From assembly GCA_964423705.1 (NCBI GenBank), contig CAYRGA010000001.1:15788-59492 (forward strand): 43,705 nucleotides of DNA, written 5' to 3'. This document shows, in pieces, positions 17,685 to 29,873 of this stretch. Every line of letters begins with the position of its first letter. Position 1 is the first letter of the stretch. Source of the stretch: an uncultured Oscillospiraceae bacterium. GTDB lineage: Bacteria > Bacillota > Clostridia > UMGS1810. A program made the translations under genes and the position numbers. The notes under the pieces were generated by a model. It was given only the letters and a program-made list of their open reading frames with translations, did not search any database and was not told the origin of the DNA.

Positions 17685-17721
17685 TAAAATAAAACAGCGG
17701 CTGCGCATATCGCACAGCCGC
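17685..17721 (-). terminator. Rho-independent terminator of the hydrogenase operon (hairpin copy B)
   Basis: Stem GCGGCTGCGC (17697-17706) / GCACAGCCGC (17712-17721) with one C-A mismatch and loop ATATC. On the minus strand it is followed by TGTTTTATTTTAT. Confidence 0.75.
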
Positions 17722-17734
17722 CTTAAATTTACTA

Positions 17735-19471
17735 TTATTTATTTGCACTTCTGTCAACATAGTGAGTATGGAGAAGCTCATGTGCCTTATGACTTCCGGG
17801 CTCACCGAAATACTCTTTATACATAAGCTGTATATTCGGGTTCTCATGAGATTTTCTGAGAACAGAAGCTTCGTCCTCGCTGTAAAGAGCTCCTGCTCTT
17901 TTAGCTTTAACGTCAACCACAGCCTTTGTACGTGAATCGACTATCGGCTGTCCGCCGCCGTTTATACAACCACCGGGACATGCCATAATCTCAACGAAGT
18001 CATATTTCTCACCGGCTTTAATCTTATCAAGAATAACTCTTGCATTCTTTGTACCGTGAGCAACCGCAACCTTAACATCCTTTCCGGCGATTTTAAGTGT
18101 AGCTTCCTTAACGCCTTCAAGACCTCTTACCTCGGTTATATTCAGGTTATCGAGCGGCTTCTTTTCCAGAATCTCATACACTGTACGGATTGCAGCTTCC
18201 ATAACACCGCCTGTCGTACCGAAGATAACGCCGGCACCTGTAGCAGCTCCGAACGGCTGGTCAAACTCTTCGTCCGGAAGATTTGCAAAGTCGATACCTG
18301 CCTGCTTAATCATTCTGGCAAGCTCTCTTGTGGTGAGAGAAACATCGATATCCTGTGTTCCGTCGGTTGAAAATTCATCTCTGCTTGCTTCAAATTTCTT
18401 TGATGTACAAGGCATGATGGCCACAGAATATATCTTATTCTTATCGATACCCGATTTCTCTGCATAATAAGACTTAATAACCGCACCGAACATTTCCATA
18501 GGCGATTTGCATGAGGACAAATTACCCAAAAATTCCGGATAGTAGTGCTCACAGAATTTAACCCAACCGGGTGAACATGAAGTGATAATCGGGAGATTTT
18601 CCTGTTTGGTGAATCTCTCTATAAACTCTGTACCCTCCTCCATAATGGTAAGGTCGGCACTTGTATCTGTATCAAATACCTTATCAAAGCCAAGGCGTCT
18701 TAAAGCAGCTACCATCTTTCCGGTAACCGGTGTTCCCATCGGAAGACCGAATTCCTCGCCGAGAGCGGCACGAACTGCCGGAGCAGTCTGTACAACCACG
18801 TGCTTTTCGGGGTCGTCTATAGCGCTTATAACCTTCGGGATATCATTCTTTTCGGTAAGAGCTCCTACCGGACATGAAACTATACACTGACCGCAGAATA
18901 TACATCCCACATCCTTGATATCCTTTTCAAATGTAGATGTAATGTGTGTTTTAAATCCTCTGTCAGCACAGTCGATAACCGAAACTGTCTGATTCTTACA
19001 AGCCGCTATGCAACGACGGCAAAGTATACATTTGTTGTTATCTCTCACAAGTGAAGTAGACGTATTATCGAGCGGATAGCTGATATTTTCGCCTTCATAT
19101 CTGAGCTCGTCGATACCAAGCTCCTCAGAGAGCTGCTGAAGCTCACAGTTTCTGTTTCTTACACAGGTAAGACATTTCTTTTCGTGGTTTGAAAGGATAA
19201 GTTCCAGTGTGTCGCGTCTTGCCTTTCTTACCTTAGCCGAATTTGTATAAATCTCCAAGCCTTCCGAAACGGGATATACACACGCAGCCTGAAGTGCTCT
19301 GGCTCCCTTTATCTCTACAAGACACATTCTGCATGCACCTATCTGATTGATATCCTTGAGATAACAAAGCGTAGGTATGTGAACATTTGCATCTCTTGCA
19401 GCATCAAGGATGGTGTAAGATGCAGGAACGCTGTATTCTTTATCATTAATTTTAATATTTACCATATCCAT
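17735..19471 (-). CDS. hydA: [FeFe]-hydrogenase catalytic subunit, HydABC/Hnd (NADH/ferredoxin-linked, bifurcating-type) class
   Basis: N-terminal plant-type 2Fe-2S domain and several 4Fe-4S motifs. H-cluster motifs are ITSCSPGW, IMPCTSKKFE and EIMACPGGCINGGGQP. RBS AAGGAGGG. Confidence 0.95.
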   Translation of the reverse strand: MDMVNIKINDKEYSVPASYTILDAARDANVHIPTLCYLKDINQIGACRMCLVEIKGARALQAACVYPVSEGLEIYTNSAKVRKARRDTLELILSNHEKKCLTCVRNRNCELQQLSEELGIDELRYEGENISYPLDNTSTSLVRDNNKCILCRRCIAACKNQTVSVIDCADRGFKTHITSTFEKDIKDVGCIFCGQCIVSCPVGALTEKNDIPKVISAIDDPEKHVVVQTAPAVRAALGEEFGLPMGTPVTGKMVAALRRLGFDKVFDTDTSADLTIMEEGTEFIERFTKQENLPIITSCSPGWVKFCEHYYPEFLGNLSSCKSPMEMFGAVIKSYYAEKSGIDKNKIYSVAIMPCTSKKFEASRDEFSTDGTQDIDVSLTTRELARMIKQAGIDFANLPDEEFDQPFGAATGAGVIFGTTGGVMEAAIRTVYEILEKKPLDNLNITEVRGLEGVKEATLKIAGKDVKVAVAHGTKNARVILDKIKAGEKYDFVEIMACPGGCINGGGQPIVDSRTKAVVDVKAKRAGALYSEDEASVLRKSHENPNIQLMYKEYFGEPGSHKAHELLHTHYVDRSANK

Positions 19472-19486
19472 CTTATGTACCCTCCT

Positions 19487-21280
19487 TTATTTTATAATAG
19501 CATTCTTAGGACAGTTATCCACGCAAACGCCGCATTTAACGCATTTTTCGGAATCAATGTAATGAACCTTCTTGATTTCGCCGGAAATAGCACCGACCGG
19601 ACAGTTTCTCGCACACTTGGTACATCCGATACATTTATCCTGGTCAATCTTATAGGAGATAAGCGCCTTACATACACCGGCAGGACATTTCTTGTCCACA
19701 ACGTGTGCAACATACTCATCTCTGAAATATCTCAACGTACTGAGAATCGGGTTCGGTGCAGTCTGTCCCAGACCGCAAAGTGCGGAATCCTTTATACTGT
19801 AGCAAAGCTCTTCGAGCTTGTCAATATCCTCAAGTGTACCCTCGCCCTTTGTAATCTTATTGAGTATTTCCAAAAGACGCTTTGTACCTATACGGCACGG
19901 AGCACATTTACCGCAGGATTCATCAACGGTAAATTCAAGGAAGAATTTCGCGATATCAACCATACAGTTATCCTCGTCCATTACGATAAGACCGCCGGAG
20001 CCCATCATCGAACCGATGCTGATGAGTGAATCATAGTCAATCGGTGTATCAATAAGGGATGCCGGTATACATCCGCCGGAAGGACCTCCCGTCTGAGCTG
20101 CTTTAAACTGCTTGCCATTTGGAATACCTCCGCCTATATCATATACGATTTCACGAAGCGTGGTACCCATGGGGATTTCCACAAGACCGGTATTGTTAAT
20201 CTTACCGCCGACAGCGAATACCTTGGTACCCTTACTCTTTTCTGTTCCTATTTCAGCAAACCATTTTGCACCGTTATTTATAATAGCAGTGATGTTTGCA
20301 TAGGTTTCAACGTTGTTAAGCAGTGTAGGCTTGCCGAAAAGTCCCTTGACAGCCGGGAACGGCGGTCTCGGTCTTGGCTCACCTCTGTGACCTTCGATAG
20401 AGGTCATAAGTGCTGTTTCCTCACCGCAGACAAACGCACCTGCACCGAGTCTTAATTCAAGTTCAAAGTTAAAGCCGGTATCAAATATATTTTTACCGAG
20501 CAAGCCGTACTCTCTTGCCTGCTTTATAGCCATATTAAGTCTGTTTACAGCTATCGGGTACTCAGCTCTGATGTAGATGTAGCCCTGGTCTGCGCCTACT
20601 GCGTATGCAGCAATGGCCATAGCCTCTATAACAGAGTGCGGGTCACCCTCCAAAACGCTTCTGTCCATGAATGCACCGGGGTCACCCTCGTCGGCATTAC
20701 ATGCTACGAATTTCTTGTCACCTTGTGAGTTAGCGGTAAACTGCCATTTAAGTCCGGTCGGGAATCCGCCGCCGCCGCGGCCTCTGAGACCGGATTCTTT
20801 AATTTCATCGATTACTTCCTGCGGTTTCATCTCGGTAAGAACCTTTCCGAGAGCGGTATATCCGCCGAAAGCTATGTATTCGTCAATTGCCTCAGGGTTT
20901 ATAACACCACAGTTTCTGAGTGCGACACGCTGCTGCTTTTTATAAAAGTCAACCTCGTTAAGCGACTTAATGTTGTCCTCGTCAACCACAGTTTCCTTGT
21001 AAAGCAATCTTTTAACGATTCTGCCCTTTAAAAGATGTTCTTCTACGATTTCTTCAACGTCGTCCTCCTGAACCATGCTGTAAAAAGCACCCTCGGGATA
21101 TACGATGACAATCGGACCCAAAGCGCACAGACCGAAGCAACCTGTCTGAATAACCTTGATTTCCTCGGACAGACCTTTTTCTGCCAAACTGTCTTCAAAT
21201 TTCTTTATAATTTTGCCGCTTCCCGATGAGGTACATCCGGTACCGCCACAGACAAGGACATGAGCTCTTGCTAATTCCAT
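19487..21280 (-). CDS. hydB: NuoF-like flavoprotein subunit (FMN/NAD(H) binding) with an N-terminal thioredoxin-like 2Fe-2S domain and a C-terminal 2x[4Fe-4S] domain
   Basis: VLVCGGTGC..TGCFGLC; GRGGGGFPTGLKW; ESCGKCAPCR; C-terminal CIGCTKCARNCP and CVKCGVCVDNCP. Confidence 0.95.
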   Translation of the reverse strand: MELARAHVLVCGGTGCTSSGSGKIIKKFEDSLAEKGLSEEIKVIQTGCFGLCALGPIVIVYPEGAFYSMVQEDDVEEIVEEHLLKGRIVKRLLYKETVVDEDNIKSLNEVDFYKKQQRVALRNCGVINPEAIDEYIAFGGYTALGKVLTEMKPQEVIDEIKESGLRGRGGGGFPTGLKWQFTANSQGDKKFVACNADEGDPGAFMDRSVLEGDPHSVIEAMAIAAYAVGADQGYIYIRAEYPIAVNRLNMAIKQAREYGLLGKNIFDTGFNFELELRLGAGAFVCGEETALMTSIEGHRGEPRPRPPFPAVKGLFGKPTLLNNVETYANITAIINNGAKWFAEIGTEKSKGTKVFAVGGKINNTGLVEIPMGTTLREIVYDIGGGIPNGKQFKAAQTGGPSGGCIPASLIDTPIDYDSLISIGSMMGSGGLIVMDEDNCMVDIAKFFLEFTVDESCGKCAPCRIGTKRLLEILNKITKGEGTLEDIDKLEELCYSIKDSALCGLGQTAPNPILSTLRYFRDEYVAHVVDKKCPAGVCKALISYKIDQDKCIGCTKCARNCPVGAISGEIKKVHYIDSEKCVKCGVCVDNCPKNAIIK

Positions 21281-21299: not shown

Positions 21300-21671
21300 T
21301 TATTTGTTCGCACCGATAGTATATTCAGAAACGACTTTTCCGTTTACGACCGTTTCATTTACCATCTTCACAGCTTTTTCGGCAGTCATCTCAACATAAG
21401 TGATTTTCTCACTGCCCGGCATATAAACCTCAACAATCGGCTCATATTTACACATACCTATGCAGCCTGTCTGTGTAACATATACGCTGTCTGTGAGATT
21501 TCTCTTTTCGATTTCGTCCATTATTGCCTTAAGTACAGGTCTTGCTCCTGCCGCGATACCGCAGGTTGCCATTCCCACAACTATGCGGATGCTGTCTTCG
21601 CTTTCTTTTCTGAGATTTACCTTTGCCAAGGTCTTATTTCTCAATTCCTCCAACTGAGCTAAGCTTTTCAT
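21300..21671 (-). CDS. hydD: Small thioredoxin-like ferredoxin subunit (HydD/HndB-type) with only three Cys
   Basis: 123 aa. Motifs GMATCG....TGCIGMC. Positioned between the ATPase gene and hydB, as in Hnd/Hyd tetrameric clusters. Confidence 0.8.
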   Translation of the reverse strand: MKSLAQLEELRNKTLAKVNLRKESEDSIRIVVGMATCGIAAGARPVLKAIMDEIEKRNLTDSVYVTQTGCIGMCKYEPIVEVYMPGSEKITYVEMTAEKAVKMVNETVVNGKVVSEYTIGANK

Positions 21672-22226
21672 TTATAAAGCACCTCCATATAATTTTTGTG
21701 TTTCTTCCCTAATATAGTCCTCAATCCATTTAAGAACATCGATTTCACTCAGTGCAATATCACTGCCGAGTACCTTCCGTATCTCTGCGGTGGAAAGTTC
21801 AAAGGCTTCACCGTTACAGGTGTGCCTGTACACATAATCGATTTTATCGTTTCCTCCGATAAGTGTACTCATGGTGGAAGCCATGTCACCGAGCGGCTGA
21901 CGGTCGATACTGTCATATATCAAAACCGCCGTAACCCTTGTACCGACACCGCGCTCCGACTCGACCCTAAAGTTTCCGCCCGTAAGCTCACACGCATTTT
22001 TAAAGAGCGAAAGTCCGAGTCCCACCTTGCGTGTCGTCCTCGTAGTTCTGAACGGATTTACCACATCACTCAGAAATTCCTTGTCCATACCGCAGCCGTT
22101 GTCATTTATCACTATTGTAAGAGTATCCGCGCTTACATTCTCATCAACCTCAATCTCTATAAGCGTTGCTTTGGCTTTTACGGAATTTTGAGCAATGTCC
22201 AAAATATGCAGTGATAATTCGGTCAT
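21672..22226 (-). CDS. Stand-alone GHKL (histidine-kinase-like) ATPase domain protein embedded in the hydrogenase structural genes
   Basis: ATG at 22226 (MTELSLHILDIAQNS), after GGAG. N-box HILDIAQNS, G1 DNGCGM, G2 GLGLSL. No DHp/His phospho-acceptor region. Confidence 0.8.
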   Translation of the reverse strand: MTELSLHILDIAQNSVKAKATLIEIEVDENVSADTLTIVINDNGCGMDKEFLSDVVNPFRTTRTTRKVGLGLSLFKNACELTGGNFRVESERGVGTRVTAVLIYDSIDRQPLGDMASTMSTLIGGNDKIDYVYRHTCNGEAFELSTAEIRKVLGSDIALSEIDVLKWIEDYIREETQKLYGGAL

Positions 22227-22353
22227 AATAATCTCCGTATATAATTTAAGATATATCAGTATGCTTTTTTTGCCATTTACACAAAGCACATTCGGTATTA
22301 TAATTATTGATAGTGGATAACGCCGTCCATGCGTGCCGTAAATCAGCTATGTA

Positions 22354-22845
22354 TTACATATATTTGGCAAGAATGTCATCGACATCGTCCACGGTAAGTC
22401 TGCCGTAAACCTCATCGTTGACAGTGAGTACCGGCGCAAGACCGCATGCACCTATACAACGAGTGGCATCAAGCGAGAATTTTCCGTCTGCCGTACATTC
22501 GCCGACATCAATACCGAGTCTCTGCTTGATTCTTTCGATTATATCACCGCTGCCCTTAACGTAGCAGGCGGTACCGAGACAGACTGCGACCTGATACTGA
22601 CCCTTTGGATAAATTGAAAACTGCGTGTAAAATGTAACAACGCCGTAAATCTCCGACATCGGTATATCAAGTCCGTCGGAAATCTTCTGCTGTACTTCCT
22701 TCGGGAGATATCCGAAGATATCCTGTGCCTCATGAAGAACAGGTATAAGTGCGCCTTCAGTGCCCTTATACTTCTCAATTACATTTTTAAGTTTTTCGTC
22801 TTGTTCTGCTGTGCTTACAAAAGCCGGAGCTTTTATTTCACTCAT
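22354..22845 (-). CDS. hydC: NuoE-like 2Fe-2S subunit of the hydrogenase
   Basis: 163 aa. Motifs CLGTACYVKG ... CIGACGLAPV. RBS GAGGGGG. Confidence 0.9.
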   Translation of the reverse strand: MSEIKAPAFVSTAEQDEKLKNVIEKYKGTEGALIPVLHEAQDIFGYLPKEVQQKISDGLDIPMSEIYGVVTFYTQFSIYPKGQYQVAVCLGTACYVKGSGDIIERIKQRLGIDVGECTADGKFSLDATRCIGACGLAPVLTVNDEVYGRLTVDDVDDILAKYM

Positions 22846-22944: not shown

Positions 22945-23700
22945 TTAATCACTGTTATACAAATTCGTCGTTTTGCATAATTGTTTTGTTTTTTTACCTT
23001 CTAGTTTTGTGATTATTTGCCGTAGATTGTTGCTCTCCACATCGATATAATACTCTTTTTCATGTATATCCCACAGAAAATGTGCATCGGAATCGTGTAT
23101 CATCATATATTTGTCGATTCTGTTTGTAAGCGAAAGCCTGTTTATGCTTGACGGATTCTTTATTTCAACCGTTGAAAGCTCCAATTCCTCGGGTATTAGA
23201 CCGAGATTCGATACAAGGCTGTAGGAATCCTTGTCAATATGTGCCGGAATTATAACTCCGCCCAGACCTCTGACACATTCCGCAGCACGGTATACGTCAA
23301 GCTTTGAAGCAGTAATCAATAAATTTTCAAGTGTGCCCACCGCATTGTCATTTTCATCCATAATTATCTGTTCACCGAATATATCGGCTCGGTTTTTGAC
23401 CGGCGGCATGCTTGATGTCACTATATCGTCAAGCTCCTCAAGTGCCTCCACATTATCAAACAATGCCAGCATGTGAACCTCCTCGGAGGTTTCAAGCTCC
23501 ATTCCGGGAATGACGATAAGCGAAGTTTCCTGTGCACACTTCATGCATGCACGCACATTTTTCGCCGAATTATGGTCTGTGACCGCAATGGCATCCAAGC
23601 CCTTTAACAATGCCATGTTTACTATGTTGTTCGGTGTCATGTCATTGTCACCGCATGGTGACAGTGCAGAATGAATATGAAAATCATAATACAGTTTCAT
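22945..23700 (-). CDS. PHP-domain (polymerase/histidinol-phosphatase fold) metal-dependent phosphoesterase
   Basis: YDFHIHSALSPCGDNDMTP, AVTDHNS and a later HDSDAH motif. ATGA overlap with the upstream DRTGG gene. Confidence 0.85.
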   Translation of the reverse strand: MKLYYDFHIHSALSPCGDNDMTPNNIVNMALLKGLDAIAVTDHNSAKNVRACMKCAQETSLIVIPGMELETSEEVHMLALFDNVEALEELDDIVTSSMPPVKNRADIFGEQIIMDENDNAVGTLENLLITASKLDVYRAAECVRGLGGVIIPAHIDKDSYSLVSNLGLIPEELELSTVEIKNPSSINRLSLTNRIDKYMMIHDSDAHFLWDIHEKEYYIDVESNNLRQIITKLEGKKTKQLCKTTNLYNSD

Positions 23701-24023
23701 ATCAGCTTACCTATTTCAACACACAGCTCATATGCGGGAAGCTGAGTTCTCAAAATGGTGACATTTTCGCTTTTTGCCTTTTCGGCAACTGACTCATCCA
23801 CGCTCATACCCTGTGCAATTATTATACAGCTGGGTTCCGTAAGTACGGCTATTGCCGCAATGTTGATATTGGTCTGAACGGTTACCCACACGTTATTACT
23901 GCTTATATTCGACATACAGTGGCTCAGTAAATCCGAGCAGTAGCAGCCCTCCGCCGTTACCGACATATCACCCTCGGACACCACCTCAAGCTTTAATTCG
24001 TTTTTCAGTTCTTCTACCGTCAT
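23697..24023 (-). CDS. Single-domain DRTGG protein (copy 2)
   Basis: 108 aa. Shares the pattern of copy 1 (CSDLLSHCMSN.., VWVTVQTNINIAAIAVLTEPSCIIIAQG, ILRTQLPAYELCVEIGKL). Overlaps the genes on both sides by ATGA. Confidence 0.7.
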   Translation of the reverse strand: MTVEELKNELKLEVVSEGDMSVTAEGCYCSDLLSHCMSNISSNNVWVTVQTNINIAAIAVLTEPSCIIIAQGMSVDESVAEKAKSENVTILRTQLPAYELCVEIGKLI

Positions 24024-25312
24024 TTTTTATCACCGCCATTATCGGTATGCATTACGTCATTTGCAAACCTTAATATTTTCTCTTTAAATTTTATTATGCA
24101 GTCATCCTCCGCAGCATATCCGCGCACGACATCCTCTGCCAGCGAACGGCAGGTGGGCGAACCACAGGAGCCGCAGTCAAGCTTCGGAAGTCCCTCATAG
24201 ATTTCTTCAATTTTCGCGAGCTTCTGCATTGCGACAAGCATGTTGTCGTCCAAATTGAGCTTTGATTCAAAGGGAATGGGCGAGTCCCACATAAAGCTAC
24301 ACGGTGTTTCCTCATCGAAGTCGACACCGTTTTCATTGGTGCTTTTGAGCGCAAGATTTTTAACACGTCTTTTCGCCACAAAACCGTTTTCTACATTTAA
24401 AGGACCTCCCACACAGCCGCCGGTACAGGCGAGAAGCTCTATGAATTTTATATCCTTTAATCGATTGTTTTCGATTTCGTCCAGTATCTTGAGTACATTG
24501 TGTATGCCGTCCACTGCGATGTAATTATCGCCGCCGTTTGCAGCCGCCTCACCGCCGCTGTTTGCCCAGCATATCCCCGAAAAGCCTGCTTTTGAAAGCT
24601 TTTCTATATTATCATTATCCTTGAGATACGGCAGAATTTTAAGATATACATCCTTTACGGAAAAGGTACCGTCTATATTCGTCATTGACAAACCAATCGG
24701 ATAACGTGCACAGGTTGCCTTTGCGGCACAGGGCGTTATGAAAATCAAGCCTATCTCCTCACTTTTAAATCCTGTCTTTTCCATCGCCTCTTTTCTTGCA
24801 AGCTTGGCTGCCAGCTGCATGGGTGATATAAGTGGAACCACATTATTTATAAGGTTCGGAAATCGCGTAGCTATGAGCTTAACCACAGCCGGGCATGCCG
24901 AATTTATAGCCGGCGTTTCCAAGTGCTTTAAATCCATGAGCTTTTTCGTTTCACGTGTAATCATCTGGGCCGCATATGCGACCTCGTACACATGGTCAAA
25001 GCCAATCTTAAGCAAAGCATTTAATATGACGTCGATATCCTCCGCCTGCGCAAACTGCCCATAAAAGGTAGGCGCGGGCAGAGCCACCGTGTATTTGAAA
25101 TCCTTTAGCCGCTCCAAGCTGTCCGTCACGGCTTTTTTCGCGTGATACGGGCAAATCCGTATACATTCGCCGCAGTCAATGCACTTTTCTTTTAAAATTT
25201 TCGCCTTTCCGTTTTGAACACGTATCGCCTGTGTCGGACAGGTTTTGATGCAGTTCGTGCACCCCTTGCACTTATCTCTGTCCAACAGCACCGAATGTCT
25301 GATATCTTCCAT
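24020..25312 (-). CDS. HydS-like (putative sensory) [FeFe]-hydrogenase paralogue with a 2x[4Fe-4S] domain, H-domain and C-terminal CX2CX4CX16C Fe-S domain
   Basis: CKGCTNCIKTCP and CIDCGECIRICP. H-domain motifs NSACP, ITPCAAKATC and ELLACTGGCVGGP. Tail CGSCGSPTC-X16-C. I chose the ATG at 25312 (MEDIRHSV), after AAGGATGGTGA. Confidence 0.85.
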   Translation of the reverse strand: MEDIRHSVLLDRDKCKGCTNCIKTCPTQAIRVQNGKAKILKEKCIDCGECIRICPYHAKKAVTDSLERLKDFKYTVALPAPTFYGQFAQAEDIDVILNALLKIGFDHVYEVAYAAQMITRETKKLMDLKHLETPAINSACPAVVKLIATRFPNLINNVVPLISPMQLAAKLARKEAMEKTGFKSEEIGLIFITPCAAKATCARYPIGLSMTNIDGTFSVKDVYLKILPYLKDNDNIEKLSKAGFSGICWANSGGEAAANGGDNYIAVDGIHNVLKILDEIENNRLKDIKFIELLACTGGCVGGPLNVENGFVAKRRVKNLALKSTNENGVDFDEETPCSFMWDSPIPFESKLNLDDNMLVAMQKLAKIEEIYEGLPKLDCGSCGSPTCRSLAEDVVRGYAAEDDCIIKFKEKILRFANDVMHTDNGGDKK

Positions 25313-25461
25313 TTCTTCACCATCCTTCAAAAAGGAATTTTAAAAATATAAACTTAACGAAAATAACAACCGCCCATAGTCTAATCTGCGTATTCAACCG
25401 CAAATACCCATTGCCGTGCAATAATTATGTAAACGCAGTTGCAGCGGATTCAGTGTTAAGC

Positions 25462-25966: not shown

Positions 25967-26305
25967 TCAATTGTAAAGACCGCTGCCGTACAGCTTGCCG
26001 CATGCGAGATAAAGCGGAAGCTCCGTGGACATTATAACTATGTTTGCGTCCTCCGCCAATTTCAAAATTTCCTCCGCCGGCTGCTTGCCCCTTACAAAAA
26101 CGATGGCCTTCATATCCATCATTTCTGCCGTCCTGACAACCTGAGGATTTATAAGACCCGTAAGCAAAAGAGCCTGGTCCTTAACAAATGCCAGCACATC
26201 ACTCATAAGGTCACAGCCGCACGCCGCGAAAACCTCCTTGCCCATTTTGTCCTCTCCGCAAAGCACCTGCGCGGAAAGAATCCCCCTTACTTCATCAAGT
26301 TTCAT
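25967..26305 (-). CDS. Single-domain DRTGG protein (copy 1), first gene of the hydrogenase operon
   Basis: 112 aa. Motifs CGCDLMSDVLAF, ALLLTGLINPQVVRTAEMMDMKAIVFVRG, IMSTELPLYLACGKL. RBS GGGAGG. Confidence 0.7.
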   Translation of the reverse strand: MKLDEVRGILSAQVLCGEDKMGKEVFAACGCDLMSDVLAFVKDQALLLTGLINPQVVRTAEMMDMKAIVFVRGKQPAEEILKLAEDANIVIMSTELPLYLACGKLYGSGLYN

Positions 26306-27418: not shown

Positions 27419-28377
27419 AGTGCACCTTCTCCTTCGGTTAAAAATTTTCCGGCAAACTCCGAGCACAAATACCGCATTTGCTCCGTACACTCCTTCACGT
27501 AATCCGTAAGCTCATCGAAGCTTCTGTTTCTGGCATGGTTCACCGTGGGTATACCCTCAAGACACATGTGGTATTTTGCGGTAAGCGGATACGGCAAGCC
27601 AATCTCGGTAAAACCCACAGTTCCTATAAGCGACTGAAGCAGTTCGGCTTTCTGCGGCTCGTTTTTAAAATTGGCACAGAGCCAGACATACAGCTCCGGA
27701 TGAAAATTACACATTATACCGCAGTATCCGTCACCGCCGCTTCTCAGTGACGACAGCAAGGTCTGACAATTTGCGTTTAAAAGCTTAAATGAGCTGTCCT
27801 TGAGCAATTTACAACGGTCACTTATGGTTTTTGCATTGCAACAGGTGTCCTTCATGTAGTAAAATCTGCCGCTTTCAAGACACCAACTGAGTATCCTCGG
27901 TGTCACAAGCCTTTTGTACGGCATGGGGCACTCGTAAAGTCCAAGTTTAACCCCGCTCGGCAGAGCCTCTGTCACTTTTTCGGCATTTCTGAGCCATTCA
28001 TCATCACCATCGTTGTTCAAATCAAACCTGTTCGTTATCAAAATCAGCGCATCCGTTCCCGATTCCGCAATTTTGTTAAGCTCATAAATCTGGTCATCAA
28101 TCTTGTCTGACACATGCGCCGAGGACACGACCGTCATTTTTCTGCCGTACTCCTTTTCAAGCTCCTTTACCCTTTGCCAAACGGTCTTATTAATTTTTAC
28201 TCTTTCTTCAAGTGTAAGATAAAATATCTCACTCGACTGGCACACCGCAAAGATGCCGTCCAAGCCTTTTTTGTAATACCAGTCAACGTATTTTTTTACC
28301 GCTTCGTAATCAACACCGCCGTCGGAAAGATACGGCGTTATCATAGTAGTGAATGCTTCCGCTTTTTTCATCGTCAT
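27415..28377 (-). CDS. DHDPS / N-acetylneuraminate-lyase family class I (Schiff-base) aldolase
   Basis: TTMITPY N-terminus, GIFAVCQSSEIFYLTLEER, and the candidate catalytic Lys in YYMKDTCCN. Confidence 0.8.
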   Translation of the reverse strand: MTMKKAEAFTTMITPYLSDGGVDYEAVKKYVDWYYKKGLDGIFAVCQSSEIFYLTLEERVKINKTVWQRVKELEKEYGRKMTVVSSAHVSDKIDDQIYELNKIAESGTDALILITNRFDLNNDGDDEWLRNAEKVTEALPSGVKLGLYECPMPYKRLVTPRILSWCLESGRFYYMKDTCCNAKTISDRCKLLKDSSFKLLNANCQTLLSSLRSGGDGYCGIMCNFHPELYVWLCANFKNEPQKAELLQSLIGTVGFTEIGLPYPLTAKYHMCLEGIPTVNHARNRSFDELTDYVKECTEQMRYLCSEFAGKFLTEGEGAL

Positions 28378-29873
28378 ACTTCCTCAAAATTATAATTTGT
28401 TTCTCTGAAATCAGAAAATCTGTGAAAGGTAATCATATTTGAATCATGATAGTTTGTGCAGTCGTGTAGAGCGGTTCTGCACACCGCCAGTATGTCATTT
28501 CCGTCGAAAACCCAGTCGCAATAGTACATTCCCGCCTCGCGGCACGATTGATACCAGTTCAAATCAAGTAAATTTATACAATCCCTTTCTATGCTCCAGC
28601 TGCACAGGTCATCAGAGCTTACCAGCGAAAGTATGTTCCTTTGGCAGCACATATTTCCGGTGGCTCTGCTCACAAGCGAATAATATTTTTTCGACTTATC
28701 ATCATAATTAACGGTAAACTTTGAAAGTCCACCTATAAAATGCTGCATCCGCACAAATTCAAGCGGTGCAGAAGGGTTTCTTTTGTCCGCCTTCATTACC
28801 ACGACCTTCAAGCCGTCATCGGAAGGCTCTATAAATTCCGCTCCGTAATTCACACTGTTGTAGCGTGCTATCACGTATACCTCATCGTCAGGTCCGACTA
28901 CGGCGTTCGCCTCCTCCATCATGTACGGCCACATACCATCCACCGTGCCGCTCCATGACTTGTCATAATACAAATACGGTTCTGTGACAACCCAGTTTTT
29001 ACCGTCCGTTATATCGCAGTTAATGTCGACACTGGCGGCTGCCATGCCAAAGCCGCTCTCGGGATTTTTCGGGGTGTCAAACGCAACCCAAAGCCTACCG
29101 TCACATTCGACCACGGGAGTTGCCGCCTTGTGAAAGCCACCCGTCCTCGCACCGGTAATGCTGCACGGCTTTCCGAAGGTGTGTCCACCGTCCTCCGAGC
29201 AAAACAGCATTATGTCAAGCCCGCTCTGTTTTATGTTGCTGTCACCTCTGCGTTCCTCCAGATTAAACGGGTCGGCTAATACCGCATCATCGGTTGATGA
29301 CAGCGCAATCATGCATAGCTTGTCCTTAAACAAAAACAGCTTTCCGAAGGTGCAGCTGTGTATGTCGCTTAAAAAGCTCCATGTTTTGCCGTTATCCGAT
29401 GATTTATACAGCTTCGTCACACAGGTTTCGTATGCGGTTTTATCTCTGAAATCAACACCGAATTTGTTGGGATAGGATTCCAGAAACAAATCATGACTTA
29501 CTATAATATCGCCGTTTTTCATTTTCACAATGCTCGGACTTCCCAGATACCTTCCGGCAGGATCAAACGTACTGTCGTACGGATGAAGATATGTCACGCA
29601 CCTTCCGGGAACATAATTCGGAATCAGCACTCTGGTATTGCTCTCGGCGATAATGTTTTCGTCTTTATCATACGCACGGGCGGTGACAAAGTATTTTTTG
29701 TTGTTTTCAAGACCGCTAACCTCCGCATGTCCGCGCCGTATATCATAATTTTCTTCAACTCTTCTGTTGTTTTCATCACATATTTCAATTTTCAAAGATT
29801 CTGTTTTTATTGGGATATCTCCCACAGATATCTGCGCCCCGGCATCGTGTGGGGCAATAATTTGTATAATCAT
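28374..29873 (-). CDS. Cytoplasmic BNR/Asp-box beta-propeller glycosidase (sialidase-like) with an N-terminal beta-sandwich domain
   Basis: Asp-boxes SSDNGKTW and SEDGGHTF. No signal peptide (MIIQIIAPHDAG). RBS AAGGAG 5 nt before the ATG. Confidence 0.7.
   Translation of the reverse strand: MIIQIIAPHDAGAQISVGDIPIKTESLKIEICDENNRRVEENYDIRRGHAEVSGLENNKKYFVTARAYDKDENIIAESNTRVLIPNYVPGRCVTYLHPYDSTFDPAGRYLGSPSIVKMKNGDIIVSHDLFLESYPNKFGVDFRDKTAYETCVTKLYKSSDNGKTWSFLSDIHSCTFGKLFLFKDKLCMIALSSTDDAVLADPFNLEERRGDSNIKQSGLDIMLFCSEDGGHTFGKPCSITGARTGGFHKAATPVVECDGRLWVAFDTPKNPESGFGMAAASVDINCDITDGKNWVVTEPYLYYDKSWSGTVDGMWPYMMEEANAVVGPDDEVYVIARYNSVNYGAEFIEPSDDGLKVVVMKADKRNPSAPLEFVRMQHFIGGLSKFTVNYDDKSKKYYSLVSRATGNMCCQRNILSLVSSDDLCSWSIERDCINLLDLNWYQSCREAGMYYCDWVFDGNDILAVCRTALHDCTNYHDSNMITFHRFSDFRETNYNFEEV

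Follow-up and report, generated by a model that had tools for sequence, protein, structure and literature searches.

Known group D hydrogenases and the hydS locus

Group D (M2e) [FeFe] hydrogenases were named as a group in 2010, and biochemical work on them dates from 2019-2020. We examined hydS, a gene assigned here to this group, and the genes around it in a 43,705-nucleotide stretch of DNA (hereafter the window) from an uncultured Oscillospiraceae bacterium (GenBank assembly GCA_964423705.1, contig CAYRGA010000001.1, positions 15,788 to 59,492 of the forward strand). Group D is defined by two [4Fe-4S] motifs at the N-terminus, an H-domain from which Cys299 and the remainder of the group A proton path are missing, Ser or Thr at the Met353 position with Met497 variable, a C-terminal Cx2Cx4Cx16C domain without PAS, and a gene that adjoins a group A hydrogenase operon (Land 2020, PMC8163306; Schumann 2026, PMC13104023). 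TamHydS of Thermoanaerobacter mathranii (Land 2019/2020; Cabotaje 2023; Schumann 2026) has a high H2 affinity and a low, electrochemically irreversible H2 turnover, and exposure to H2 alters its secondary structure (PMC8163306; PMC13104023). A weak sensitivity to CO is a further trait of enzymes of the TamHydS type.

Genes of this group have also been described by their location. The M2e genes of Caldanaerobacter (TTE0887, with TTE0892-0894), C. thermocellum (Cthe_0335, with Cthe_0340-0342) and Caldicellulosiruptor (Athe_1292, with Athe_1297-1299) lie five genes before A1 TR(M3) trimeric hydrogenase genes, and M2e genes were classed as sensory because of their location ahead of trimeric hydrogenase genes (Carere 2012, PMC3561251). 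Group C (M2f, TmHydS) is the sister clade of group D. Like HydS, its members have two N-terminal clusters, an H-domain that has neither the relay Cys nor the Met residues, and a CX2CX4CX16C module after the H-domain, but they carry PAS after that module and HydS does not.

HydS is a typical member of group D

For comparison, the TamHydS protein sequence was rebuilt from the codon-optimised gene in the supplement of PMC13104023, and we consider the reconstruction sound because 17/17 residues numbered in that paper match the expected amino acid. HydS and TamHydS have the same three-part architecture (430 and 435 amino acids) and are 53% identical and 71% similar over 417 residues (E 4e-161), while HydS shares 23% identity with HydA of its own operon. 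In a neighbour-joining tree of 71 sequences and 402 columns, built for groups A-D without curated E-G references and with few outgroups, whose architectures were confirmed by Pfam, HydS, TamHydS and 60 cluster representatives form the group D clade in 200/200 bootstraps. Group-C-like proteins bearing PAS or GGDEF form a separate sister clade (200/200), and groups C and D together split from groups A and B (200/200). The NCBIfam models for groups A and B score HydS far under their cut-offs (TIGR02512, 120 bits against 406; NF040763, 95 bits against 765). On these analyses, HydS is almost certainly a group D enzyme, an orthologue of TamHydS. Related proteins are abundant. Of the 8,000 scored candidates, at least 7,752 90%-identity clusters reach E <= 1e-10; 592 50%-identity clusters reach E <= 1e-30, and the architecture is common to all 120 of the 90%-identity clusters listed. 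The closest relative genome, an uncultured Clostridia metagenome-assembled genome (MAG) from a human gut metagenome, shows 87% identity and carries the same ten genes.

The catalytic motifs of HydS were assigned by alignment, beyond pattern matching. In a phmmer alignment with the D. desulfuricans hydrogenase, NSACP falls on TSCCP, TPCAAK on MPCIAKK and ELLACTGGC on EYMACPGGC, and an alignment of 131 sequences (122 group D, 3 group-C-like, 4 group-B-like and 2 group A) puts the three motifs in the same columns. The H-cluster ligands C300, C355, C499 and C503 and also Lys358 are all kept in HydS, as Cys140, Cys195, Cys296, Cys300 and Lys198, and the four ligand cysteines, Lys198 and Pro141 are invariant across close homologues. 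HydS has Ala139 at the Cys299 position, as does TamHydS (A137), and the residues found there in the 122 group D sequences include Ala (46), Ser (22), Phe (18) and Thr (11). At the Met353 position HydS has Thr193 and TamHydS has Ser, both usual in group D (Thr in 62 and Ser in 43 of the 122), and both proteins have Leu at the Met497 position (Leu294 in HydS). The Glu361 position is occupied by Cys in HydS and by Ser in TamHydS. The group A signature, TSCCPxW with the relay Cys, MPCxxKxxE and ExMxCxxGC, is therefore broken in HydS at Ala139, Thr193, Cys201 and Leu294. The group D proton path, E252-E289-S249-D265 in TamHydS numbering, is identical in HydS (Glu255, Glu292, Ser252 and Asp268).

Outside the H-domain, seven of eight charged residues around the accessory clusters of TamHydS (R30, R32, K35, K58, D378, E392, D393 and D403) are identical in HydS, where Arg31, Lys36 and Lys59 lie in the N-terminal domain and Asp379, Glu393, Asp394 and Asp404 flank the C-terminal cluster. 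The only departure from the signature is Gln33 at the position of the conserved Arg32 of TamHydS, within the salt-bridge set predicted to link the N-terminal with the C-terminal domain, and Gln is found there in 4/122 group D sequences. The C-terminal motif CGSCGSPTC-X16-C (Cys380, 383, 388 and 405) and its flanking Asp residues are identical in the two proteins, which come from an uncultured gut Clostridia lineage (HydS) and a thermophile (TamHydS).

Pfam finds two Fer4 domains, Fe_hyd_lg_C (E 1e-35) and PF04060, "FeS" or "Putative Fe-S cluster" (E 2.4e-12), in HydS. The C-terminal 74 amino acids alone match the N-terminal [4Fe-4S] regions of two proteins, RnfB (9ERI_B residues 41-77, E 7.9e-4) and the large subunit of the corrinoid/Fe-S protein (4DJD_C residues 7-43, E 5.9e-6), and these domain and module matches are far above chance. 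No PAS or any other output domain was found in HydS by Pfam, and 25 residues remain after Cys405. The sequence of HydS thus shows a complete H-cluster site, two relay [4Fe-4S] clusters at the N-terminus and a proton path of the group D type, and no output domain of its own. An AlphaFold model of moderate confidence (predicted local distance difference test score, pLDDT, 73.7; predicted template modelling score, pTM, 0.78) was compared with the Protein Data Bank (PDB) by Foldseek. The matches listed are all [FeFe] hydrogenases, namely group A enzymes and CbA5H, and no solved group C or D structure is among them.

The conserved active site also bears on whether HydS carries its cofactor at all. 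HydS could lack the [2Fe] subcluster in vivo, as eukaryotic Nar1/NARF do, and serve as a mere Fe-S scaffold or adaptor, which would fit the lack of HydEFG maturase genes within the window and the AlphaFold model being weakest in the cofactor loops (residues 246-260 and 297-313). However, the cofactor ligands, Lys198 and Pro141 are retained, TamHydS, at 53% identity, takes up a [2Fe] mimic within minutes (PMC8163306), and the catalytic HydA of the same operon requires the same maturases. We therefore regard a cofactor-free scaffold as very improbable.

HydS also differs from group C in that group C has Gly or Ala at Met353, keeps Glu361 and has Ile or Leu in place of the E252-type path. As judged from sequence, HydS belongs neither to group C, given its lack of PAS and its position in another clade, nor to group A or B, and it has every group D feature of sequence and gene context that can be addressed at this level. 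It is a typical group D member in a typical gene context, and as such already known. The earlier note, made from the letters of the window, had listed two ferredoxin motifs (CKGCTNCIKTCP and CIDCGECIRICP), NSACP, ITPCAAKATC, ELLACTGGCVGGP and CGSCGSPTC-X16-C at 24020-25312, and all of them are present there. Its reading of the active site (ligands and Lys kept, relay Cys replaced by Ala, Met by Thr and Leu, Glu by Cys) is borne out by both alignments, and the kinship that it saw between the C-terminal module and the N-termini of RnfB and the corrinoid Fe-S protein by PF04060, 4DJD_C and 9ERI_B. Its statement that the CX2CX4CX16C domain stands instead of PAS has to be corrected, because group C has the module and PAS together and group D is merely without PAS.

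Group-C-like proteins in the comparison set show other layouts. An Actinomycetota MAG locus (L064, 9995-11746) encodes a HydS-like protein with two Fer4 domains, an H-domain and CX2CX4CX16C fused to a GGDEF diguanylate cyclase domain (E 1.8e-46), a sensory-type hydrogenase whose output is cyclic di-GMP in place of PAS. In two others (L061, 9989-14260; L062, 9983-14282), a group-C-like HydS lies about 1.2 kb upstream of a group-B-like hydrogenase with TSCCP, and PAS was detected in L061 only; this layout resembles the hfs-type arrangement described for Thermoanaerobacterium.

A conserved five-gene block around hydS

In the window, hydS is the third of ten co-directional genes on the minus strand, which include bifurcating-type hydC, hydB and hydA genes, the latter two at the end (Table 1). 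After HydS come DRTGG (+1), PHP (+2), HydC (+3), ATPase (+4), ferredoxin (+5), HydB (+6) and HydA (+7). This order fits the published group D loci cited above, from which no difference in gene order was detected by locus-tag spacing, a comparison that also drew on Thermoanaerobacterium loci (L022, L024 and L026). TamHydS is likewise encoded upstream of a trimeric bifurcating hydrogenase and beside a kinase-like ATPase, and, in comparison with its locus, no AraC-type regulator is seen beside the operon of the window. With 916 bits, HydA exceeds the cut-off (765) of the NCBIfam model NF040763, "NADH-dependent [FeFe] hydrogenase, group A6".

We then compared 79 species-representative loci, of which 60 encode a HydS of group D (identity of 37% or more). 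DRTGG1 and the small ATPase lie directly upstream of HydS in all 54 loci with enough flank, DRTGG2 is present in 54/57, and DRTGG2 and PHP together lie directly downstream in 52/57. Thus DRTGG1, the SpoIIAB-like ATPase, HydS, DRTGG2 and PHP make up a near-universal five-gene block, which goes beyond the published accounts that we found; no open-access full-text paper was found that discusses the DRTGG and PHP neighbours of HydS. In the small ATPase, the N, G1 and G2 boxes for ATP binding are kept across 55 species, and in PHP the His/Asp metal ligands across 52. DRTGG1 is strongly conserved (DLMSDVL and LLTGLxNxQxxRTA blocks), DRTGG2 far less, and the conserved Ser35, Thr49 and Thr59 of DRTGG1 would be candidates for phosphotransfer. 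The top NCBIfam match of the small ATPase is the anti-sigma F factor (TIGR01925), under its cut-off, and its PDB sequence relatives are SpoIIAB anti-sigma F kinases only. PDB sequence searches gave no match for DRTGG2 and only weak matches to generic phosphoesterases for PHP.

What follows the block is more variable. HydB and HydA lie directly downstream in 24 of 37 loci, in 4 more one or both occupy another place in the locus, and in the rest both are absent within 10 kb. In two Clostridia MAG loci (L057, 1-9879, and L046), DRTGG, ATPase, HydS, DRTGG, PHP and the second ATPase are directly followed by rnfC-D-G-E-A-B, without hydCBA. Since rnfCDGEAB replaces hydCBA there, the regulatory block is the conserved unit, with a variable neighbour, and may control different ferredoxin/NADH modules. 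The second ATPase travels with the HydS block where hydCBA is absent (L046, L056 and L057), and no HATPase_m match was found in HydABC loci without HydS (L067 and L068).

The rnf loci could also point to general control of the ferredoxin/NADH balance, in which case HydS would sense cellular redox (the ferredoxin or NADH pool), with the accessory clusters as the input and the H-cluster merely equilibrating them with H2. Its three accessory [4Fe-4S] clusters, including the RnfB- and corrinoid/Fe-S-protein-type module, are in keeping with such a role. However, in TamHydS the C-terminal cluster lies at a very low potential and does not respond under H2, and the H-cluster ligands and proton path, needless for a pure redox sensor, are strongly conserved. 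We find a redox sensor of this kind unlikely.

Natural fusions point to signalling partners

Genes of the block are also found fused to hydS. Among the best 150 50%-identity cluster representatives, 10 are natural fusions, comprising seven HydS-DRTGG2 proteins with DRTGG2 at the HydS C-terminus (P0131, P0132, P0163, P0171, P0227, P0249 and P0268), two DRTGG1-HydS proteins with DRTGG1 at the N-terminus (P0158 and P0201) and one ATPase-HydS protein (HATPase-HydS; P0159). In these fusions, each part has its orthologue among the genes of the window. Three of the ten were found in one cluster member only. The HATPase-HydS and DRTGG1-HydS fusions and three of the HydS-DRTGG2 clusters were seen again in independent assemblies, among them an isolate genome (MCB6993385.1), and these recurring fusions are therefore not assembly artefacts. 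They likely name the DRTGG proteins and the SpoIIAB-like ATPase as signalling partners of HydS. The earlier note had predicted that HydS signals through protein contacts and had described its neighbours as DRTGG and kinase proteins; Pfam agrees with the latter, finding DRTGG and kinase-like ATPase proteins, and the fusions together with the conserved neighbourhood lend independent support to the former. Its view of HydS as a slow, sensory-type group C/D enzyme without its own output domain coincides with the published group D hypothesis (PMC8163306; PMC3561251; PMC13104023), in which sensing is still putative.

The same neighbours bear on a catalytic role. HydS might be a slow but genuine catalyst, for example for high-affinity H2 uptake or as a safety valve, with its N-terminal clusters passing electrons to and from ferredoxin, and the kinase and phosphatase neighbours would then regulate HydS itself. 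Its H-cluster site is complete and its dedicated proton path conserved, and a mutation in the proton path of TamHydS lowers activity, so that the retention of a working path argues that turnover matters. Against this, the rates of TamHydS-type enzymes are low and electrochemically irreversible, signalling-type neighbours accompany HydS in 54/54 and 52/57 species and are fused to it in several lineages, and the same operon already encodes a fast catalytic group A enzyme. These points make a primarily catalytic role improbable.

A putative H2-responsive signalling block

Taken together, the account that we consider best, and fairly probable, is that HydS is a TamHydS-type protein that senses H2 for the control of HydABC through bound partners; for a sensory or regulatory role of HydS as such, we lean towards it with slightly more reserve. 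In the sensing model, HydS would turn the H2 partial pressure into a conformational state, which would be read by partners bound directly to it, the two DRTGG proteins and the SpoIIAB-like ATPase/kinase. The opposing activity would come from the PHP phosphoesterase, the second kinase-type ATPase may possibly be involved too, and the relay would tune the downstream HydABC hydrogenase, in its expression or its activity, or, in some other species, Rnf.

The concept has a counterpart in the regulatory [NiFe] hydrogenases (HoxBC/HupUV with HoxJ), in which a low-activity paralogue reports H2 to a kinase and thereby controls an energy-conserving hydrogenase. The model proposed for HydS shares this concept, a comparison also made in PMC8163306. 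However, the metal site and fold are unrelated, and HoxJ, a histidine kinase with PAS, has a response regulator, whereas the candidate partners of HydS are the SpoIIAB-like ATPase, the DRTGG proteins and the PHP phosphoesterase.

A second parallel is with partner switching. Like SpoIIAB-SpoIIAA-SpoIIE, the HydS block sets a GHKL ATPase of about 140 amino acids beside small proteins of about 110 amino acids and a phosphoesterase, but it has no STAS domain, PP2C phosphatase or nearby sigma factor, and DRTGG and PHP stand in their places. It is possible, though doubtful, that the block and the second ATPase form an undescribed H2-responsive phospho-signalling device akin to partner switching. In such a device, HydS loaded with H2 would either bind the small kinase or let it go, DRTGG would replace the STAS antagonists and PHP the PP2C phosphatase, and the output would control energy modules linked to ferredoxin/NADH, in most species HydABC and in some Rnf. 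We treat this as an analogy and not as membership, because only the kinase-like ATPase resembles the SpoIIAB family.

Several observations weigh against H2 sensing for HydABC control. In the window, no DNA-binding regulator or sigma factor lies beside the operon, which is flanked by carbohydrate and capsule genes, and the HydEFG maturase genes are missing, as mentioned above. In about a quarter of species the block is not beside HydABC. To our knowledge, H2 sensing is physiologically unproven in all group D enzymes, DRTGG is no known kinase substrate, and PHP is no known protein phosphatase of partner-switching systems. In TamHydS, the C-terminal cluster stays oxidised under H2, with a very low potential, and its disruption hardly affects activity (PMC13104023). 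TamHydS does interconvert H+ and H2, leaving room for a catalytic role (PMC8163306). Reviews, one of them of 2024, call the H2-sensing role of group D "putative" and state that signal transduction by sensory [FeFe] hydrogenases is unknown.

Organization of the operon

The features of the operon are collected in Table 1. The hydS ATG at 25312 is preceded at 7-16 nucleotides by an AAGGAtGG-like ribosome site. An in-frame TTG at 25330, six codons upstream, was considered as an alternative start and is disfavoured; the ATG is likelier, given this ribosome site and the alignment with TamHydS, which begins at residue 5/6. The stop of hydS overlaps the start of DRTGG2 as ATGA (24020-24023), and so does the stop of DRTGG2 with the start of PHP (23697-23700), both on the minus strand, which suggests translational coupling and a fixed stoichiometry. 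A promoter-like site lies 5' of the first block gene, DRTGG1, and the strong terminator-like hairpin after hydA likely marks the end of the operon. No His-phosphotransfer or sensor domain was detected in the second ATPase (21672-22289). Scanned over its full length with Rfam, the window shows no RNA family, and there is therefore no riboswitch-type control to report.

Table 1. Features of the hydS operon, with positions counted from the first letter of the window
Feature	Position	Strand	Basis or remark
DRTGG-domain protein 1 (DRTGG1), 112 amino acids, first gene of the block	25967..26305	-	PF07085
Small SpoIIAB-like GHKL ATPase, putative serine kinase, 141 amino acids	25462..25887	-	HATPase_c_2
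hydS, group D (M2e) [FeFe] hydrogenase, 430 amino acids	24020..25312	-	Open reading frame (ORF), Pfam, TamHydS identity, tree
HydS N-terminal F-domain, residues 8-58	25139..25291	-	Two [4Fe-4S] motifs, CKGCTNCIKTCP and CIDCGECIRICP
HydS H-domain, residues 73-304	24401..25096	-	Fe_hyd_lg_C E 1e-35; AlphaFold model nearest to solved [FeFe] hydrogenases
HydS motif 1, NSACP, residues 137-141	24890..24904	-	Alignments; Ala139 at relay Cys299 position, Cys140 H-cluster ligand
HydS motif 2, ITPCAAKATC, residues 192-201	24710..24739	-	Alignments; Thr193 at Met353 position, Cys195 ligand, Lys198, Cys201 at Glu361 position
HydS group-D-specific alternative proton path, Ser252, Glu255, Asp268 (with Glu292)	24509..24559	-	Identical to TamHydS S249/E252/D265/E289
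HydS motif 3, ELLACTGGCVGGP, residues 292-304	24401..24439	-	Alignments; Glu292 (TamHydS E289), Leu294 at Met497 position, Cys296 and Cys300 ligands
HydS C-terminal single-[4Fe-4S] module, CX2CX4CX16C	24095..24190	-	PF04060 E 2.4e-12
DRTGG-domain protein 2 (DRTGG2), 108 amino acids	23697..24023	-	PF07085; start overlaps hydS stop (ATGA)
PHP-family metal-dependent phosphoesterase, 251 amino acids	22945..23700	-	PF02811; start overlaps DRTGG2 stop (ATGA)
hydC, NuoE-like [2Fe-2S] subunit	22354..22845	-	PF01257 E 2.9e-54; NCBIfam NuoE/HoxE
Second GHKL ATPase, histidine-kinase catalytic domain only	21672..22229 (start codon uncertain; ORF as listed to 22289)	-	HATPase_c E 3.9e-17
Small thioredoxin-like [2Fe-2S] ferredoxin, HydD-like	21300..21671	-	Pfam, NCBIfam
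hydB, NuoF-like flavin/NADH subunit	19487..21280	-	Complex1_51K, NADH_4Fe-4S; nuoF_fam E 6e-152
hydA, group A [FeFe] hydrogenase, HydABC type	17735..19471	-	NF040763; presumed regulatory target
Terminator-like hairpin, 12 bp stem then T run, just 3' of hydA	17696..17722	-	

HydA itself carries a variant active-site motif. At amino acids 297-301 (18569-18583, minus strand) it reads ITSCSPGW, with Ser at the position of the [4Fe-4S]H ligand Cys300, before Pro301, and with Cys299 kept. Among the fetched loci, TSCSP occurs in 31/31 HydA orthologues beside a group D HydS block and TSCCP in 3/3 HydA without the block. The active HydA1 of A. woodii (7Q4V) has TSCSPGW, and T. kivui HydA1 and CpI have TSCCP. 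The sole mention of the TSCSP variant that we found in the literature is a remark in a Melainabacteria paper. Upstream of the operon, in a sugar-utilisation cluster, a 499-amino-acid ORF (28374-29873, minus strand) matches no Pfam family at E <= 1e-5.

Implications for sensory [FeFe] hydrogenases

The identification of hydS itself re-derives a known hydrogenase group definition from raw sequence and adds very little. The five-gene block and its recurrent fusions are a modest, testable lead on signal transduction by sensory [FeFe] hydrogenases, as they suggest concrete binding partners. These proposed partners of HydS could be tested with TamHydS, which several laboratories already handle.

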